NCBI GenBank assembly: GCA_030674455.1
Contig: JAUSGQ010000027.1
Location: forward strand, 18,786-82,785
Length of the DNA: 64,000 bases
From: a bacterium
GTDB lineage: Bacteria; Patescibacteriota; Minisyncoccia; Phycocordibacterales; UBA2100
Direction: 5' to 3'
Positions 6,343 through 56,516 of the stretch are shown here, one piece after another (position 1 is the stretch's first letter; each line of letters opens with the position of its first letter). The notes under the pieces were generated by a model. It worked only from the letters and a program-made list of their open reading frames with translations. It ran no database searches and had not been told where the DNA came from. A program made the translations under genes and the position numbers.

Positions 6343-6672
6343 TTAAAGATATTTCTTTCCGTACTTTCGCATTGCGTCTAAAACACCGCGCAATGCAGCG
6401 CCCTTTTTTGTCAATGTATATTCAACACGGGGCGACTGCACAAAAAATTCTTTCTTTTGGATGAGCTTTTTGCTCTCTAGAAGCCTTAACTTATTGGAGA
6501 GTGTTCGCGTGCTTATGCCAGAAAGTGAGTCCTGCAAATCACGGAACCTCCTTGGCTTTTCAAGGAGGTCGCGCAGTATGAGAAGCGAACAAGAATCCCC
6601 TAAAAGGTCTGCAACGCGTGCAACGGGGCATGAGTGGCACAATGTTTTCCTTTGTTGGGCTGTCCGGAGCAT
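6343..6672 (-). CDS. HxlR-family transcriptional regulator
   Basis: CHSCPVARVADLLGDSCSLLILRDLLEKPRRFRDLQDSLSGISTRTLSNKLRLLESKKLI matches the HxlR wHTH. Start placed at an internal Met; the N-terminal extension of the tracked ORF looks spurious. Confidence 0.7.
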   Translation of the reverse strand: MLRTAQQRKTLCHSCPVARVADLLGDSCSLLILRDLLEKPRRFRDLQDSLSGISTRTLSNKLRLLESKKLIQKKEFFVQSPRVEYTLTKKGAALRGVLDAMRKYGKKYL

Positions 6673-6990
6673 TATCCCGTTAGAGGCCCGCCTGCCATCG
6701 CCTGAAAGCAACGGTAGCTGCGCCTTTATTAGTTGGTAAGTTTGCAACGTTAACTCCAAACACCGCGTCCGCCGCTCTGGCTTTGGCGGGCAGGCAGGAA
6801 GCAATGCTTCCCGCACATGATTTAGAATTGATAATCGACCTGATTGATTTATTTTCCGAATGTTCCATATATAAGTCCCGTCTTCCGCGGCCTCTAACGG
6901 GATTATCCACAGATTATCATCTCTTCTGGCACTTTACAATGTAAAGCGCCGGTATATACTGTAGTCATTAACAATTTAAATACTAGAAAA

Positions 6991-8524: not shown

Positions 8525-8598
8525 GCCCAGATAGCTCAGGTAGTTAGAGCATTCCCCTGAAGAGGGAAGGGTGGTCAGTGCAAGTCTGACTCTGGGCA
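8525..8598 (+). tRNA. tRNA-Phe(GAA)
   Basis: Acceptor GCCCAGA/TCTGGGC, D-arm TAGCTCAGGTAGTTAGAGC, anticodon loop CTGAAGA, discriminator A. The 3' strand is also part of a 12-bp downstream hairpin. Confidence 0.8.
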
Positions 8599-8799
8599 CA
8601 AATAGTATTTTTTGCATTTTGTGCCCAGAAGAGCTGTGCCTGCGCACAGCTCGCGTCGGACTTGCAAACCGGAGCTATGTCGCGGAGCGACGGCGAGGTG
8701 TGGCCGTCTACAGGTGCCTATCATTACTGCGATAGGCACAGGAGCCACTTAGCGCGCAGCGCTTAGTGAGCTGACACCAAGTCTGACTCTGGGCACAAA
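8581..8799 (+). repeat. 22-bp direct repeat of the tRNA-Phe 3' end (CAAGTCTGACTCTGGGCACAAA) flanking about 175 bp of structured sequence
   Basis: Copies at 8581-8602 and 8778-8799. The intervening region holds hairpins and one copy of the GCCGTCTACAGGTGCCTATC motif. Confidence 0.8.
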
Positions 8800-8800
8800 A

Positions 8801-15227: not shown

Positions 15228-15271
15228 CAAAAACATTCCAACATTCTCAAGAATGTTGGAATGTTTTTGGA
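15228..15271. repeat. 44-nt perfect hairpin CCAAAAACATTCCAACATTC-tcaa-GAATGTTGGAATGTTTTTGG
   Basis: 20-bp perfect stem. A related 26-nt palindrome TTCCAACATTCTCAAGAATGTTGGAA occurs inside the dus CDS at 45956-45982. Confidence 0.8.
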
Positions 15272-16623: not shown

Positions 16624-16639
16624 ATATACCTAATTTAGT

Positions 16640-16671
16640 CTATGCTAGTGTTTTGCAAAACACTAGCATAG
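16640..16671. repeat. Palindromic repeat (TTTTGCAAAA-core family) between convergent genes
   Basis: CTATGCTAGTGTTTTGCAAAACACTAGCATAG. Candidate bidirectional terminator. Confidence 0.7.
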
Positions 16672-18262: not shown

Positions 18263-18365
18263 TAAATGCGAGAAGCACCGACCGGGTGCCTTTCGCATTG
18301 GATGTGCCGGGAGAGGGACTTGGTCACAAATAATTCCTGTGCCGTCGCACAAGAATTTTCGCTAA

Positions 18366-18399
18366 GCCTATCCATTTGTGATAGGCACCTGTAGACGGC
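18366..18399 (-). repeat. 35-nt motif GCCGTCTACAGGTGCCTATC-N7-GATAGGC (copy 2 of 3)
   Basis: Reverse-complement copy; the others are at 8703-8737 and 19872-19904. Confidence 0.75.
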
Positions 18400-18528
18400 C
18401 CGGCTCGGCATTTCGCGTACTCGCGAGAATATGCCTCCGCCTTTCAAGTCCCTCGCGCGATGTGCGCAGGCACACCGCTTCCCACCACAGTCTCACTGCG
18501 TTCGTCTGTGGGGTTGTACGATGATGTA

Positions 18529-18696
18529 CGAACCTATTTTAGCAGGAACTCGGACTGACTCGCGCGCTCCGCGCGCGTGGTGGCTTTGTATTCTGTCTTG
18601 CGATTGGATTTTGTACCCGCCCCCGCCCCGCCGCACTCTCCTCCATACGCATCTATTTCGCGGGGGTTTTTGAAAATTGAATGGGCGGCGGGGCGG
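18529..18696 (+). repeat. Long inverted repeat P (left copy), about 168 bp
   Basis: About 90% identical to the reverse complement of 27706-27889, with one roughly 14-nt indel. It has an internal GC hairpin. Confidence 0.85.
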
Positions 18697-18699
18697 GGG

Positions 18700-18733
18700 C
18701 AAACGGCTCAATTACCAGTAATTGAGCCGTTTG
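18700..18733. repeat. 34-bp perfect palindrome CAAACGGCTCAATTAC-ca-GTAATTGAGCCGTTTG
   Basis: 16-bp arms. Related AACGGCTCA / TGAGCCGTT half-sites recur at about 19600-19640 and 19826-19860, near the wHTH gene. Confidence 0.8.
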
Positions 18734-18817
18734 GGTTCAAATGCAATTCAGAATTGAGCCTCGTGCATTCTATTGTCGCTAGTGGCCCAGCCCACGGGGT
18801 GTCACCCTCGGCATCCG

Positions 18818-19185
18818 CCTCGGGCATTTCCGCTAGGGCTACGAGCGCCTAGATGCCTAGGTGCGCTGCTATTCCGCGCCATTTCCCGCGTGCTCGCGGG
18901 TGGCGCGGGCAGCGCCTCTATTTGGGGAGAGGAAGTTATCCTCTCCCCAGCGTCGGGCTCATCCTCGCATTGCTTTCGTTGCGTGCGTCGTTGTGTCCAC
19001 TGGTTTCGGTTTGCGTGTGTTAGTGCCTCGCATTAGCTGGCCTTCGGATTCCGCCACTCGCACAACCCCTCTCCTCGTTTGCATTCTTGCTTTTAGTTTG
19101 TCGCTTCCGCTTATGGATTTTGTAACTCCGATTAACGGAGGCGCTCGTCCGTAGGGCGTGGGCGCCCTAGCGGAAATGCCCGATG
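18818..19185. repeat. About 370-bp GC-rich non-coding segment bounded by 21-bp inverted repeats (CCTCGGGCATTTCCGCTAGGG / CCCTAGCGGAAATGCCCGATG)
   Basis: 20/21 inverted match, internal hairpins (GGGGAGAGG-aagttat-CCTCTCCCC), and no credible ORF on either strand. Confidence 0.6.
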
Positions 19186-19278
19186 CGCTGCCGATGCGCT
19201 TGCCCCACCCACCGTGCGCGCGCAAAATTTCCGCCGTGGAAGAATTAAACACGGCGGAACTCCCTTGCAAACAAAATT

Positions 19279-19824
19279 CTAAATCTTTTCGTAAACAACG
19301 CCGATACCAGTTTTCCCAACTTGTTTTATTTTTCCATCTTTCTCCAATGCAGAAAGATACCTCGTCGCCGTCGCGTCCGAGACATGCAAGAGTTTCTCCA
19401 CTTCGTCGTTTGTGACTTTGCCCTTCTTTTCCAATTCGGTCATTATCTTTTCGAGTTTGATTTTCTTTCTGCTTTGGATCGTCGCACGGGCTTTCGATAG
19501 TACATCACGACCGAGATTTACGATTGGCGCAACAACCGATACTGGCGCACTCGGCTGCGGCGCTGGTTGCTGCTCCGGTAACGGCTTGTCGTGAGCGGAG
19601 TCGAACGGCTCACTCGTAGCGGGTAACGGCTCATTTCTTCCCATTTGAGCCGTTTGCGTTGGCCCGCCGAAGCCTTGTGCGGAGGGGGCGGGTTCAAGTG
19701 GTGCTTCAACCACTGGTTCGTTTTGCGTTACCTCCGGTGTTGTGGGAGCCGGTGCCGCCTCCGGCGGCGGTATCACTGGTTCTTCCGCAGGTGGGAGAAC
19801 GGGCGATGTATCTTCGTCGGCCAT
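19279..19824 (-). CDS. Winged-HTH DNA-binding protein with Pro-rich N-terminal region
   Basis: C-terminal MTELEKKGKVTNDEVEKLLHVSDATATRYLSALEKDGKIKQVGKTGIGVVYEKI matches the wHTH fold found in Fic/DeoR-associated regulators. N-terminal 110 aa are low-complexity P/A/E-rich. Confidence 0.55.
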   Translation of the reverse strand: MADEDTSPVLPPAEEPVIPPPEAAPAPTTPEVTQNEPVVEAPLEPAPSAQGFGGPTQTAQMGRNEPLPATSEPFDSAHDKPLPEQQPAPQPSAPVSVVAPIVNLGRDVLSKARATIQSRKKIKLEKIMTELEKKGKVTNDEVEKLLHVSDATATRYLSALEKDGKIKQVGKTGIGVVYEKI

Positions 19825-19940
19825 GGCTCAATTCTAACTCATCAAACGGCTCATATAGTGGGGACATGAATGCCGTCTACAGGTGCCTATCTCAAACGAT
19901 AGGCCTTGCTTTTTCCGTAGAAAGTGGTATAATTAAATAG

Positions 19941-27705: not shown

Positions 27706-27889
27706 CCGCCCCGCCACCCATTCAATTTTCAAAAACCCCCGCGAAATAGATGCGTATGGAAGAGAGTGCGGCGGGGCGGGCGGGCGCGTACTCGCGCCCG
27801 TGTACAGAATCCAATCGTGCCACAGAGTACAAAGCCACAGCGCGCGCGGAGCGCGCGAGTCAGTCGGAGTTCCTGCTAAAATAGGTTCG
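27706..27889 (-). repeat. Long inverted repeat P' (right copy)
   Basis: Reverse complement of 18529-18696, with an extra hairpin CGGGCGCGTACTCGCGCCCG. Confidence 0.85.
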
Positions 27890-27907
27890 AGCATCGTTGT
27901 AGATACT

Positions 27908-28069
27908 CACAACACAAGAGACAAGGTCGGATTTCGGCTGGTTTTCTTTGGCGCGGGACAAAGAAAACCAGTGTGGTTGGGGCATTCCGCGCGCTTCGCG
28001 CGCGTGGAGGGTGAGGTTCGCAAAATTCAAAAGCCGAAGATTTTTGGAGGGAGGATTTTTTGGAGGGGA
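27908..28069 (+). repeat. Long inverted repeat Q (left copy), about 160 bp
   Basis: Near-identical to the reverse complement of 31332-31483 apart from an 11-nt indel. Contiguous with P'. Confidence 0.85.
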
Positions 28070-29950: not shown

Positions 29951-31510
29951 ATGTTGAAAGGTAATAGTATGTTATATGATACTACTATGACCCATTTCCT
30001 CTACGCACGCAAAAGCACCGATGTTGAGGACAAGCAAGTCCTTTCTATTGAAGCGCAACTTTTTGAGTTGCGCGCGCTCGCGCGAGAAAATAATTTGGAA
30101 ATTGCCGCGGAGTTTGTTGAAAAGCAATCGGCGAAAATGCCTGGCCGTCCTATTTTCAATGACATGACGGCACGAATACAAAAAGGTGAAGCACAAGGAA
30201 TCATTTGTTGGAAACTTGATCGTCTCGCGCGCAATCCAGTGGACGGCGGGCAGATTAGTTGGTTTTTGCAAAACGGCATCATCGCACACATTCAGACGCA
30301 CGACCGCGCGTATTATTCCGCCGACAATGTTTTGATGATGTCGGTGGAATTCGGTATGGCGAATCAATATGTGCGCGACCTTGCGACGAACACCGCGCGT
30401 GGCTTACGACAGAAAGCGCGACAAGGTGTATATCCGGGCCAAGCGCCACTCGGATATTTGAATGACCCGCGTACAAAAACTATTGCGGTAGACCGCAAAA
30501 AATCCAAAATCGTGCGCGCCGCTTTTGAGCTGTACGCTCAAAACGGCTCGCGTTTAGAAGATGTCTCGCACTTTCTTTTCGATAATGGTATTACTACAAA
30601 AGCGACGAACCGATGGAAAAGTAGCGGAGAGAGGCCGCTGAAAAAAGACCAAGCAAAATTGATACTCACGAATTCTTTTTATTACGGCCACTTTCGCTAT
30701 GCCGGAGAAATGTACGAGGGAAAGCATACGCCGATTGTTTCCAAAGAGCTTTTTGACAAAGTGCAAAAAGTTTTAGCTCTGCGCGGCAAAGTACAACGGC
30801 ACACAAAAGAGCCGCAGGCTCTTTGTGGCCTTTTGAAATGCGGAGAGTGCGGATGTTCTATCACAGCCGAGGTGCAGACGAAGAAAAGCGGGAGACAATA
30901 TATTTACTACCACTGCACCAAAAAGCGCGGAGTATGTGATGGGGCATACATACGCGAAGAAACACTCGATACGCAACTCTCCGAGCTGCTGTCGCGTTTT
31001 CACTTGCCGCCCGCGTGGGCGAGTGAATTACAGAAAATGACGGAGCGCGACGAGGCAGAAGCCACTCAAACTACGGCGGCGTCTGTTCAAGAAATGCGAG
31101 CAAAGATTGCCGAGTTGGACGGCAAAATTGCTCGCATCACCGACCTCTTTGTGGAGCAGGATATTGAGCGCGGCGAGTATCTTGAAAGGAAACGCGCGCT
31201 GATGTCCGAAAAGAAGTCGCTACAAGAGCGTTCGCTCTTGCTTGAACGGAACGCCACCGTGTGGCTCGAACCCATGCGCAAGTGGATAAACGACGCTTCA
31301 ATGCTTGAAGAAATAGCAAAATCCCAAGACCTCCCCTCCAAAAAATCCTCCCTCCAAAAAATCTTCGGCTCGAACCTCACCCTCCACGCGCGCGAAGCGC
31401 GCGGAATGCCCCAACCACACTGGTTTTCTTTGTCCCGCGCCAAAGAAAACCAGCCGAAATCCGACCTTGTCTCTTGTGTTGTGCCGGGAGAGGGACTTGA
31501 ACCCTCATGA
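29951..31510 (+). CDS. Large serine recombinase (resolvase/invertase N-domain + recombinase domain + zinc ribbon)
   Basis: Catalytic YARKSTDVEDKQ...SIEAQ, a Cys cluster CGECGCS...YYHC, and a coiled-coil C-region. The last ~60 codons run through repeat Q' and 29 nt into tRNA-Leu, so the true stop is uncertain. Confidence 0.8.
   Translation: MLKGNSMLYDTTMTHFLYARKSTDVEDKQVLSIEAQLFELRALARENNLEIAAEFVEKQSAKMPGRPIFNDMTARIQKGEAQGIICWKLDRLARNPVDGGQISWFLQNGIIAHIQTHDRAYYSADNVLMMSVEFGMANQYVRDLATNTARGLRQKARQGVYPGQAPLGYLNDPRTKTIAVDRKKSKIVRAAFELYAQNGSRLEDVSHFLFDNGITTKATNRWKSSGERPLKKDQAKLILTNSFYYGHFRYAGEMYEGKHTPIVSKELFDKVQKVLALRGKVQRHTKEPQALCGLLKCGECGCSITAEVQTKKSGRQYIYYHCTKKRGVCDGAYIREETLDTQLSELLSRFHLPPAWASELQKMTERDEAEATQTTAASVQEMRAKIAELDGKIARITDLFVEQDIERGEYLERKRALMSEKKSLQERSLLLERNATVWLEPMRKWINDASMLEEIAKSQDLPSKKSSLQKIFGSNLTLHAREARGMPQPHWFSLSRAKENQPKSDLVSCVVPGEGLEPS
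31332..31483 (-). repeat. Long inverted repeat Q' (right copy) abutting the tRNA-Leu 3' end
   Basis: Reverse complement of Q. Homology ends exactly at the tRNA discriminator base. Confidence 0.85.
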
Positions 31511-31565
31511 GCTTGCGCTCGAACGATCTTGAGTCGTTTGCGTCTGCCAATTCCGCCATCCCGGC
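31482..31565 (-). tRNA. tRNA-Leu(CAA)
   Basis: Minus-strand cloverleaf with acceptor GCCGGGA/TCCCGGC, anticodon loop CTCAAGA, a long variable arm (GAGCGCAAGCTC) and T-loop TTCAAGT. Confidence 0.8.
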
Positions 31566-32674: not shown

Positions 32675-32710
32675 CCTCATTCTAACGTTTTGCAAAACGT
32701 TAGAATGAGG
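32675..32710. repeat. Palindromic repeat CCTCATTCTAACGTTTTGCAAAACGTTAGAATGAGG (family A)
   Basis: Lies between convergent parB and rel genes. Identical cores sit at 51263-51294 and 56517-56548. Confidence 0.8.
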
Positions 32711-44260: not shown

Positions 44261-45041
44261 TAGGCGATTTTTTCGTTGGTAATCCAACGAGCAAAAATCG
44301 TGTCGAAAACCAGGAGGTTTTCGACCAGAAACTCGGTGTATTGCCAAGGGGCACCCTTGCCACAAATCGCAGTCCAGCGTAGCGATAGCGTAGTCGGGTA
44401 ATAGGAAAAAGGCCGAAACAAATTTGACGCTCATCTCATATTCCTTTACTGCATTCCACAAACTCTCACGGTCGTGAGGGTTTGTGGAATGCGTATCTTT
44501 TAGCAGTCTGACTGCTAGGAGTGAGTCTATAAAAAGACGGACCCCAGCAAGGCGGTTCGCCTTGCTGGGTTAATCAATGCCGCGCCAAATGTCGCCCTGG
44601 ACGAATCTGGCTTCTAGCCAGCGTCTGAGTGATTGTTGGCGCCACCGAAGCGATGAGTATGCCCATCCTCGAGAATCTGTATCGCCCCTCAAGAAACCTA
44701 TGCTCATGTCGAGCAAGAATTCGATTTCCATCAAAGCTGGAACAGGATGGTGCCTTGCCCCATTTTCTGCGGCCCCAAGATAAGCCTCCGAGGCCTGCAA
44801 GGCGCTCATGTTCGCGACACAGATGCTTTTCGGCACCCTTATCGCGATAGACCAACTAATAAGACCAAAAATGAACCCAAATACAATCAGGGTTTGCATA
44901 GAAGCATCCTCCATAAAATTACCGTCGAGTACCGTCTCAACGGGTAAATCAATGTTCAATAGCAACCAAAAGGCAATATCGCAAATCAGAGAGAGAGAGA
45001 GTCAATTGTCAGTCTGTTCCGTGTAGGCGATTGGAACTAGG

Positions 45042-45087
45042 ATTCTGGCAGTCAGACTGCTAAATTTAGCAGTCTGACTGCCAGAAT
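45042..45087. repeat. 46-bp palindrome ATTCTGGCAGTCAGACTGCTA-aatt-TAGCAGTCTGACTGCCAGAAT
   Basis: 21-bp perfect arms. Related GCAGTCTGACTGC palindromes at 44501-44517 and 46163-46185. Confidence 0.8.
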
Positions 45088-45125: not shown

Positions 45126-46202
45126 ATGAAGAATTTTTGGACGAAATTGCCTAAACCTTTTTTTGCACTCGCTCCCATGGAGGATGTTACCGACGCGGCA
45201 TTTCGGCGGCTCATTGCACGTTATGGCAAGCCGGATGTGATGTTCACGGAATTTACATCAGCGGATGGGTTATTTTTTGCGAACCCCGTTAGAAGTCGCG
45301 CCCGCGCTAGCGCGCCCGAAGGGCCTTTGGGGCGGGCACATCGAGTAGGGATGTGCACCTGTAGACGGGCTATTTCTAACGGGGCAGGCAGGTCTGGGTG
45401 GGAGAAGTTACAAAAGAAGTTACTGTTCTCGGACGAGGAGAGGCCGATTGTCGCTCAATTATTTACGGCCTCGCCGGAGCGGATGAAAAAAGCTGCCGAG
45501 ATGGTTGCAAAGCTGGGATTCGACGGGATAGACATCAACATGGGATGCCCCGACAGGGCAGTCGAAAAATCTGGATGCGGCGCGGCGCTGATGAAGAATC
45601 CGAAACTCGCGTGCGAGCTTATTCGCGCGGCAGGTGAGACTGGCTTGCCAGTGTCGGTAAAAACCAGAACAGGTTATTTAATCGATGAACTGGAGACGTG
45701 GCTTCCGGAATTGCTTGCGGAAAATCTCTCTGCCGTAACAATTCACGCGCGCACGAGAAAAGAAATGTCGGATGTACCGGCGCGCTGGGAGACGATAGCG
45801 CAGGCCGTAGAAATTCGCGACTCCCTGAAATCAAAAACGCTCATAATCGGCAATGGCGATGTGCGCGACCTCGCGGAAGCGCGCGAGAAAGCAGAAATGT
45901 CCGGCTGTGATGGTGTAATGCTAGGCCGCGCAATTTTTGGGAACCCTTTTTTATTCCAACATTCTCAAGAATGTTGGAATGTCAGGGAAGCGAAACTGAA
46001 GGCACTTGCGGAACATTTGAAGTTGTTTCAGGAGTTGCTTGCGGAAACGTCGAGCTACGCCACTATGAAAAAGCACTTTGCTACGTATGTAAAAGGATGG
46101 TCAGGAGCTAAAGAACTTCGCATGAAGCTGATGGAGACTAATAATGTTACGGAAGCACTTTCTGTCTTTGGCAGTCTGACTGCCAAAGAACTAAGACAGT
46201 AA
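45126..46202 (+). CDS. tRNA-dihydrouridine synthase (Dus family) carrying an in-frame ~34-aa insertion
   Basis: Dus motifs LAPMEDVTDAAFRRL and DINMGCP. An extra Arg/Gly/Ala-rich low-complexity 34-aa segment is encoded by the TIR-bounded insertion. Confidence 0.75.
   Translation: MKNFWTKLPKPFFALAPMEDVTDAAFRRLIARYGKPDVMFTEFTSADGLFFANPVRSRARASAPEGPLGRAHRVGMCTCRRAISNGAGRSGWEKLQKKLLFSDEERPIVAQLFTASPERMKKAAEMVAKLGFDGIDINMGCPDRAVEKSGCGAALMKNPKLACELIRAAGETGLPVSVKTRTGYLIDELETWLPELLAENLSAVTIHARTRKEMSDVPARWETIAQAVEIRDSLKSKTLIIGNGDVRDLAEAREKAEMSGCDGVMLGRAIFGNPFLFQHSQECWNVREAKLKALAEHLKLFQELLAETSSYATMKKHFATYVKGWSGAKELRMKLMETNNVTEALSVFGSLTAKELRQ
45283..45384. mobile_element. About 102-bp element with 11-bp terminal inverted repeats (CCCCGTTAGAA...TTCTAACGGGG) inserted in frame in dus
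   Basis: TIRs at 45284-45294 and 45374-45384. The interior is GC-rich, has hairpins and a CACCTGTAGACGG fragment of the dispersed motif. The inserted block has no stop codon. Confidence 0.55.
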
Positions 46203-51225: not shown

Positions 51226-51262
51226 TTTCTCAGCCTAAGGGCGTAACTCTAACTACGAAATC

Positions 51263-51294
51263 TCATTCTAACGTTTTGCAAAACGTTAGAATGA
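51263..51294. repeat. Palindromic repeat TCATTCTAACGTTTTGCAAAACGTTAGAATGA (family A)
   Basis: Between convergent genes. Confidence 0.8.
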
Positions 51295-54865: not shown

Positions 54866-55022
54866 CTCATTCTAATGTTTTGCAAAACATCAGAATGAGA
54901 AGAGCCGTAGAAAATGGATGATGGAATCTATTCTAGTATTTTGCAAAAGACTGCAATAGAAGAAAGTGCTGGGTGCAGGCGCAAATTTCCGCATCCTAAC
55001 ATTTTGCGAAATGTTAGGATGT
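54866..55022. repeat. Two variant family-A palindromes (54866-54899 and 54993-55022)
   Basis: CTCATTCTAATGTTTTGCAAAACATCAGAATGAG and CATCCTAACATTTTGCGAAATGTTAGGATG. Confidence 0.7.
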
Positions 55023-56402: not shown

Positions 56403-56516
56403 TTGTCTCGCGGGGTGTACCGTGGAAAGAGGCGGATATATGCAATGACGCGGCGAACGCTCCGAATACGGGAGTATACGGAAGCGGAGTATACGGAAGC
56501 GAGGCTTCCGCAACGC

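Follow-up and report, generated by a model that had tools for sequence, protein, structure and literature searches.

The settling of palindromic mobile DNA in frame within housekeeping genes has been regarded mainly as a peculiarity of Rickettsia. The Rickettsia palindromic elements (RPEs; Ogata et al. 2000) are short palindromic mobile repeats of about 100-150 bp, known from Rickettsia only and grouped into ten families with a whole-element consensus, which preserve the frame and are translated in unrelated housekeeping genes and which also occur between genes (PMC10969869). [quoted passage not shown] Here we describe a 101-nucleotide element within the tRNA-dihydrouridine synthase gene (dus) of a bacterium of the Candidate Phyla Radiation (CPR), located in a stretch of 64,000 nucleotides of contig JAUSGQ010000027.1, hereafter called the window. 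In our estimation this segment is, with a probability of roughly 0.85, a translated, frame-preserving MITE insertion.

The dus gene and its extra segment

The dus product belongs to the Pfam family PF01207 (Dus, E = 2.8e-61), an identical protein bears the same name (tRNA-dihydrouridine synthase) at NCBI, and a search of 5.8 billion proteins placed its relatives among Kaiserbacteria-type CPR bacteria. When 30 orthologs are aligned, those nearest to the window Dus (P0002-P0004; 74% identity by BLASTP) and most others read FFAN|ESGQEKL with nothing in between, whereas the window Dus has 35 extra residues at this point. The empty site is also seen at the DNA level, as TTT GCG AAC|GAG TCC GGC in L005, and the DNA of three syntenic orthologs was compared with the window gene, which exceeds the empty-site ortholog by 105 bases, or 35 codons; the gene order FtsQ-like, dus, dnaX is kept in L001, L004 and L005. 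A 101-nt element and a 4-bp duplication add up to these 105 bases. The in-frame insertion claimed by an initial annotation, made from the letters of the window alone, thus has its empty counterpart in both protein and DNA. The same annotation had stated that the spacing between the conserved blocks FTSADGL and EERPIVAQLF is longer than usual, which holds, although the figures are 54 residues in the window Dus and 19 in the closest orthologs instead of ~57 and ~20.

The segment is bounded by CCCCGTTAGAA at positions 45284-45294 and its reverse complement TTCTAACGGGG at 45374-45384, which are the sole two copies of this 11-mer in the window at no more than one mismatch. Their number alone is not significant (two found against 0.8 expected; 19 of 100 shuffled sequences reach two); it is the pairing of the 13-bp closing stem, together with the family evidence given below, that makes the element in dus real. 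Folded with short flanks, it is predicted to form three hairpins enclosed by a long closing stem (dG -59.8 kcal/mol; z = -3.9 against shuffled sequences), and a z of -4.5 is obtained when it is folded alone. Its GC content is 65%, compared with 50% in the remaining part of dus, and it has no open reading frame (ORF) of its own, only the frames of host read-through being present; in the frame of dus the termini read PVR...SNG and contain no stop. The TIRs, the GC-rich interior with hairpins and the insert peptide had all been correctly described in the initial annotation, but the bounded segment, given there as ~102 bp from position 45283, is 101 nt long and starts at 45284.

A lineage-specific loop, ancestral to this clade of Dus proteins and palindromic by chance, would also account for additional residues. 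One relative, P0005, encoded by loci L001-L003 (three independent assemblies of another species), does have extra residues at exactly the same site, starting with ..VR and ending with SNG, and the Kaiserbacteria Dus proteins contain several other indels. However, the closest orthologs are without the segment, and the window protein (P0001) and P0005 are not sisters in a neighbour-joining tree, which is poorly resolved. The copy of L001-L003 is 57 nt long, and what it has in common with the window insert is the transposon termini alone, the interiors of the two being unrelated. The backbone DNA of the window element recurs with TSDs in unrelated genes and genomes, and the GC contrast with the rest of the gene likewise speaks against such a loop. 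A loop of this kind, which the initial annotation had proposed to recognise by the same extra segment with unrelated DNA in close relatives, was not found, and we hold it to be highly improbable. The occupied position, site A of dus, was either hit twice or filled long ago and lost several times.

Every residue that is invariant across the 30 orthologs is still present in the window Dus, and the gene therefore looks functional. In the closest solved structure, 1vhn, the flanking blocks are joined by 5 residues, as compared to 45 in the window protein, and the HMMER alignment of the two breaks exactly at the insert. An AlphaFold2 model built with the ortholog alignment (mean predicted local distance difference test score, pLDDT, of 72; predicted template modelling score of 0.71; many core segments at pLDDT 80-96) places the insert between strand 38-45 plus helix 46-52 on one side and helix 89-99 on the other. 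Insert residues 54-87 have a pLDDT below 50, so that the structure prediction called for at the outset returned a low-confidence loop. According to this model, the 35-residue Arg-rich insert would be a disordered surface excursion, and the insertion site would fall in the short connector that follows strand beta-2 in the TIM barrel.

TIM-barrel enzymes bind their substrate on the face of the beta-alpha loops. Judged by this topology, the insert would lie on the substrate-binding face, where its arginines might touch the tRNA. The MITE may then have been exapted, its Arg-rich loop on the catalytic-face side aiding tRNA binding or specificity and being kept by selection. Such a role would fit the composition of the insert (7 Arg, net charge about +6), its position in a beta-alpha loop after strand beta-2, the occupation of the same site in a second lineage, and the retention of an insert at another position, site B, in two sister alleles. 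However, most close orthologs work without the insert, and the richness in Arg is what GC-rich palindromic DNA directly yields on translation. Neutrality is also favoured by the low pLDDT and by the two same-site inserts not being conserved, and we consider exaptation unlikely. The site-B insert is common to the sister alleles P0014 and P0018, and inserts thus persist through speciation.

Six copies with common termini were found in the window and related genomes (two in the window, two in L001, two in L004 and none in L005), and they differ in gene, site and frame. The second copy of the window occupies 6676-6901, a position between genes and 5 nt upstream of the probable start codon (ATG) of a minus-strand gene for an HxlR-like regulator, and is flanked by direct ATTAT repeats (5 bp) at 6671-6675 and 6902-6906. 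Besides its copy in dus, the species of L001-L003 carries a 115-nt copy directly upstream of topA. Both copies of L004 are 57 nt long. One is located at a different dus site and is flanked by duplicated GCGCGC, of which the empty alleles have one, and the other lies inside the FtsQ-like gene, in the other open frame (PLE...LTG), at a place that is empty in the window ortholog. When the ends are read as CCCC/GGGG, the flanks TTCG/TTCG, CGCG/CGCG and TTCA/TTCA are 4-bp direct repeats, and those of the same-site dus copy of L001 are CGAA/CGGA.

Further patchy inserts are seen in the Dus alignment A2 (P0009, P0016, P0017, P0008, P0012, P0021 and P0010/P0020/P0068). Some alleles have LNEFPPKADPP and GRWDLDRHLS inserts at the site of a palindrome described below, others a 23-residue YGG...FRVGG loop after residue 35; P0021 carries the short insert PALPAQAGCAGR, and P0012 has an extra RISRFRGLA within an insert derived from the module discussed in a later section. 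The alignment suggests that the Dus of this clade has been repeatedly colonised by small elements.

A family of copies in several phyla

Species-representative genomes were scanned with the pattern CCCCGTTAGAR-(35-95 nt)-YTCTAACGGGG. At least 120 loci match the terminus pattern, against ~8 expected by a rough chance estimate. Among the matches listed, the host loci comprise 48 of Patescibacteria (many classes), 27 of Planctomycetota, 16 of Desulfobacterota or 'delta', 11 of Omnitrophota, 4 of Nitrospirota and a few others. The search for further copies of the TIR element that had been recommended initially has thus yielded the copy at 6676-6901, those in genes of related genomes and these other loci. 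In the literature searched, of which the coverage is incomplete, there was no description of this terminus, nor of MITEs in CPR bacteria, Planctomycetota or Omnitrophota, and the family is broad and apparently undescribed.

TSDs and ORFs were counted on sampled copies, 125 with both flanks and 127, respectively. An exact 4-bp direct repeat abuts the ends in 68 of the 125 copies, whereas ~0.5 would be expected (binomial p about 1e-128) and controls offset by one to three bases gave 5, 0 and 0 copies. The duplicated tetramers are mostly TNNA (TTTA 18, TAAA 12, TCAA 6, TGAA 6, TTGA 5), and TTAA accounts for none of the 68. No major host group lacks the duplication (Omnitrophota 10/12, Planctomycetota 15/27, CPR 29/53, Desulfobacterota 9/16), which is the footprint that transposition with a staggered 4-bp cut, as made by a DDE-type transposase, leaves behind.

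Conservation throughout the family is confined to the ~11-13-nt termini, the interiors varying in sequence and in length (57 to more than 226 nt). In some GC-rich subfamilies, compensatory changes preserve two internal hairpins. A family-wide conserved RNA or single-stranded DNA fold is not supported, as just 25% of the interiors have z < -2, compared with 7% of controls.

Several copies are arranged in ways that bear on their mobility. In an unclassified genome, isolate DX4.bin27, recent activity is indicated because four 94-nt copies are identical (L017 2166-2259 and 4941-5034; L014 1-94; L078 1389-1482), each with its own TSD wherever both flanks are present. Two of them are inverted around a gene for a 663-aa lipoprotein, and a 78-nt relative is found in isolate WY2.bin9 (L040 1230-1307). 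Tandem copies with a 4-nt spacer occur in L020 (2942-3021 and 3026-3105), and nested or abutting copies in L011 (2687-2757) and L089 (2334-2438); the elements therefore insert into or beside each other. A match of 90 nt in Saccharibacteria (L058 4971-5060) has a tRNA-like interior, GCCGCTTTAGTTAAGTGGTAGAACAACGC...GGTTCGATTC-like T-arm...AAGCGGC, and may bracket a tRNA gene instead of a MITE interior.

Copies were considered intragenic when spanned by an ORF open for at least 40 codons on both sides. This applies to 26 of the 127 copies, and in all 26 the length plus 4 is divisible by three, whereas none of the 63 copies of the other length classes is intragenic (Fisher p = 1.2e-9). Since length is unbiased among the 101 copies that do not lie within long ORFs (38:38:25), frame preservation appears to be the outcome of purifying selection on random insertions, and the idea that the element length is built for coding compatibility was rejected. 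Two frames are used, PVR...SNG in 18 copies and PLE...LTG in 8; the third, with a TAG within the terminus, is used in none. The termini are open in two frames on either strand, which aids frame preservation. The host ORFs encode SecA, DNA polymerase III alpha (DnaE), FolD, Sua5/TsaC, PrmC, an NDP-sugar epimerase or dehydratase, an amino-acid kinase, an enzyme of the dihydroorotate dehydrogenase family and others.

As all intragenic copies preserve the frame and avoid the stop, the inserts are argued to be translated and not removed from the RNA. The alternative is an intervening sequence that is taken out of the RNA, a small ribozyme or something like an intron that has escaped recognition, which would leave the protein without the insert. 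It would be in keeping with the strong predicted fold, with its long closing stem and hairpins, with the compensatory changes in the hairpins of some subfamilies, and with the one G:T position of the stem, which pairs in RNA only. However, splicing would free the copies from constraints on length and stops, contrary to the frame statistics above, and most copies are intergenic with TSDs, as expected for mobility at the DNA level. The element has no Rfam match at E <= 10 and interior structure is not a family-wide property, so that we find such an intervening sequence very unlikely. The Rfam search (45200-45470) also led us to reject a known RNA, ribozyme or tRNA-like element. Over the whole window, tRNAs alone passed the Rfam gathering threshold, and ARAGORN reported six ordinary tRNAs only. 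An intein was rejected on the 35-residue size, the DNA-level inverted repeats and the existence of non-coding copies, no dedicated test having been made.

Some observations weigh against a translated MITE insertion in dus. The flanks of this copy (CGAA versus CAGG) can no longer be recognised as a TSD, the evidence that the insert is translated consists of frame statistics, and an exact 11-nt terminus kept across phyla is unusual for MITEs, its cause being unexplained. The window and about 1.4 Mb of fetched loci yielded neither an autonomous element nor a transposase with these termini, and the window dus allele is known from a single assembly. A repeat-induced chimera in this metagenome-assembled genome might thus be suspected, as the allele lies on one contig only, the exact protein has no match in the contig index, and repeats are a classic source of misassembly. 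However, the reading frame is kept, the junction with the empty site is clean, and equivalent in-frame copies are present in the three independent assemblies L001-L003 and in dozens of genomes, which makes an assembly artefact hardly credible.

The nested 33-nucleotide module and other repeats

The initial proposal of a MITE-like insertion tolerated as an in-frame loop agrees with the empty sites, the dispersed TSD-bearing copies and the low-confidence loop. It is refined here in three respects: the dus copy is composite, the family spans several phyla and is not local, and the TSD of the dus copy has decayed beyond recognition. Elements of 68-69 nt in L092 and L045 match the window element nearly base for base, minus 33 nt, GCACATCGAGTAGGGATGTGCACCTGTAGACGG. 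The L092 copy, from an unclassified bacterium, is in frame within an ORF of ~1,100 codons, and L045 belongs to Saccharibacteria. This backbone subfamily shows 86% mean column identity over six copies from different CPR classes.

The 33-nt module itself is found three more times in the window (Table 1), twice in L004 and at 66 groundwater metagenome loci. Its usual stem is GCCTATC/GATAGGC, from which the dus copy differs by two compensatory pairs. The 13-mer GCACCTGTAGACGG occurs four times in the window, against 0.16 expected. The dus insert shares it with other motifs of the window, as had been noticed initially, because the nested module is a dispersed element; the 13-mer thus belongs to a separate, nested element. 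One of the L004 copies lies within the dus gene of that genome, at another site and in reverse orientation, and encodes VYRCRSQSDRP. This 11-residue insert is also present in P0006, P0007, P0012 and P0018, and the other orthologs are without it.

As a rule, the module is located within the loop of a longer hairpin, and L162 and L164 have two modules arranged as an inverted pair. Two comparisons of filled and empty sites gave a difference of exactly 33 nt, with at most an ambiguous junction repeat of 1-5 nt. To judge from these sequences, the module is a second, smaller mobile element, probably with a different mechanism, which may follow a hairpin-recognising (HUH/Y1-like) route. No Y1 transposase for it was found, although no systematic search was made, and no RAYT or TnpA gene was identified. 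Around the other module copies, Rfam gave sub-threshold hairpin matches only.

Table 1. Coordinates of dus, of the putative MITE copies and of the module copies in the window
Feature	Position	Strand	Remarks
dus (tRNA-dihydrouridine synthase)	45126..46202	+	intact 358-aa ORF, host of the insertion
Putative MITE, CCCCGTTAGAAGT...ATTTCTAACGGGG	45284..45384	.	strand not assigned; 101 nt; encodes P54-G86 and part of both flanking codons
Left TIR	45284..45296	+	11 nt perfect, 13 nt if one G:T is allowed
Right TIR	45372..45384	+	11 nt perfect, 13 nt if one G:T is allowed
CGAA, left expected position of the 4-bp TSD	45280..45283	+	flank comparison
CAGG, right expected position of the TSD	45385..45388	+	decayed, 1/4 match to CGAA
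Nested module, GCACATC-GAGTAGG-GATGTGC-ACCTGTAGACGG	45336..45368	+	7-bp hairpin and conserved tail; encodes AHRVGMCTCRR (residues 71-81)
Second putative MITE copy	6676..6901	.	strand not assigned; 226 nt; perfect 13-nt termini CCCGTTAGAGGCC/GGCCTCTAACGGG
Module copy	18366..18398	+	inside a ~190-nt element (about 18300-18490)
Module copy	8704..8737	-	inside a ~190-nt element adjoining tRNA-Phe
Module copy	19873..19904	-	intergenic

The last 18 nt of the tRNA-Phe gene (8525-8599), AAGTCTGACTCTGGGCAC, are repeated ~200 nt downstream (8779-8796). These repeats (8576-8800) bracket a ~190-nt structured element in which the hairpin-ACCTGTAGACGG module is found, and to which the element at about 18300-18490 is homologous. 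The repeat pair resembles an att-type scar, as left by a small element on integration.

Other palindromes are present in and near dus. A perfect palindrome with 13-bp arms, ATTCCAACATTCT-CA-AGAATGTTGGAAT, is found in the coding sequence at 45953-45980 (FQHSQECWN) and is repeated near-exactly in an intergenic terminator-like hairpin at 15235-15262. The same codon position is also palindromic in L001, L004 and L005, where the arm sequences differ, and it is the site of the 33-nt module or of other short inserts in several alleles. It has the look of a palindromic element of a third type within dus, or else of a hairpin that is kept up in the coding sequence. Another palindrome family, built on GCAGTCTGACTGC, has copies at 46167-46186, 45042-45087 and 44499-44518. 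The first makes up the last dus codons (FGSLTAK...), the orthologs having an unrelated C-terminus, and the Dus C-terminus may therefore also derive from a repeat. The second, ~40 nt upstream of the dus start codon, is an inverted repeat with perfect arms (23+23 nt), and the third lies 0.6 kb upstream.

Perfect palindromes of 30-33 nt, CATTCTAACGTTTTGCAAAACGTTAGAATG, are dispersed between genes at 32676-32708, 51262-51294, 54866-54898, 54990-55022 and 56516-56548, and also at 16639-16671. They share with the MITE terminus an octamer (TTCTAACG/CGTTAGAA), in the opposite, attC-like order, which represents either a coincidence or a shared protein-binding site. Longer repeats are found as well. Inverted copies of 18507-18619 and 18622-18696 are located at 27799-27911 (84%) and 27706-27780 (97%), respectively. 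A further inverted repeat, perfect over 113 nt, is formed by 27908-28020 and 31371-31483, the latter abutting tRNA-Leu (31481-31565). The DNA between the long repeats (18300-19900, 27706-28020 / 31371-31483) encodes a helix-turn-helix protein and a Type ISP restriction enzyme and may be an integrated island bounded by repeats.

Mobilisation and comparison with known systems

The history that we propose for the dus segment begins with a non-autonomous cut-and-paste DNA transposon, a MITE, which inserted in the dus coding sequence and came to be translated with the protein. The first step was the insertion of the 68-nt backbone, which with the 4-bp duplication adds 72 bases and keeps the frame. 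The 33-nt hairpin module entered this backbone in a second step, again without disturbing the frame, 33 being a multiple of three. Insertions of any length would reach genes, selection keeping those that preserve the frame, stay off the TAG/TAA frame of the terminus and fall in loops that tolerate extra residues. A DDE-type transposase acting in trans would mobilise the family.

Searches for such an enzyme were negative at several levels. There was no transposase ORF between long terminus pairs, and no autonomous partner emerged when up to two mismatches were allowed in termini with a duplication. Generic inverted repeats with a duplication around ORFs of at least 250 aa gave just one unrelated match, in L033. 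No transposase is among the 25 best-scoring Pfam families listed for the window ORFs, and the recurrent ORF clusters near copies are all housekeeping and contain none. Only three viral contigs match the element, and carriage by phages was rejected on this count. A cross-phylum terminus without a visible transposase raises the questions of who moves it and of gene flow between episymbionts and their neighbours.

The process known from Rickettsia is thus also seen in CPR bacteria, Planctomycetota, Omnitrophota and Desulfobacterota, where it is due to a single family whose termini are identical. Insertions in CPR proteins that have no explanation so far may in many cases be transposons that are translated, instead of adaptations of a particular lineage. 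The family would readily supply essential enzymes with loops that are disordered and rich in Arg. Copies can be catalogued with CCCCGTTAGAR...YTCTAACGGGG plus the 4-bp duplication as a search key. We raise only tentatively the broader possibility that one family, defined by ~11-nt termini which are open in two reading frames, has spread over at least five phyla of anoxic groundwater and sediment, the reduced CPR genomes among them, and serves as a general source of peptide loops in essential proteins (Dus, SecA, DnaE, FolD and others). Its enzyme would be encoded away from all copies, possibly on a phage or a plasmid or in a host of the episymbionts. The 33-nt module, nesting in this family and in other hairpins, coding ones included, would then represent an undescribed minimal class of mobile DNA.

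Integron attC sites resemble the elements in that TCTAAC and GTTAGA, as inverted core hexamers, enclose a variable centre of 50-100 nt. They were rejected as an explanation because the attC core order is RYYYAAC...GTTRRRY, as opposed to GTTAGA...TCTAAC here, which reading the other strand does not convert, and because the copies are flanked by target duplications and are found within housekeeping genes or between them, without cassette or integrase context.

The duplication made by IS1380 elements is 4-5 bp long. IS1380 is the prokaryotic relative of piggyBac, which has CCC-type terminal motifs and a 4-bp TTAA duplication with the variants TAAA and TCAA (PMC10813416). The family described here likewise has termini starting with CC(C) and a 4-bp duplication with a T...A bias (5 bp at the 6676 copy). 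However, no such transposase is found near any copy, TTAA is absent from the duplications, and the likeness is one of short motifs only, so that assignment to an IS1380/piggyBac-like enzyme is a doubtful lead.

The 33-nt module is reminiscent of repetitive extragenic palindromic (REP) sequences and the IS200-IS605 group, being ~30-35 nt long and dispersed, with a hairpin, a strictly conserved GTAG-containing motif and no evident duplication, and with copies often inside other hairpins. However, the GTAG of REPs is 5' of the hairpin, whereas the conserved 12-13-mer of the module is 3' of it, and in-frame insertion in coding sequences is not a known REP habit.

The features expected of MITEs are found here, namely short length, lack of a transposase ORF, TIRs, TSDs of fixed length (at the family level), dispersed copies and empty sites; only a cognate autonomous parent element has no match in the window and the about 1.4 Mb of loci. 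Classical MITEs are restricted to one genus or family and usually have a conserved interior from a known parent insertion sequence, whereas identical termini are combined here with unrelated interiors across phyla.

By its behaviour the family is an analogue of the RPEs, and it also recalls the occasional intragenic copies of ERIC and other MITEs, while by host and by every sequence feature tested it appears not to be a member of them. Both show recurrent frame-preserving insertion in unrelated genes (here those for Dus, FtsQ-like, SecA, DnaE, FolD, Sua5 and PrmC), extra peptide segments thought to lie in tolerant surface regions, and intergenic copies. In contrast to the RPEs, with which the comparison was by description only, the termini alone are family-wide here, the 4-bp duplication is clear and several phyla are involved. 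The single dus event is thus ordinary in kind, and it is the cross-phylum terminus and the nested 33-nt hairpin element that go beyond the usual picture.

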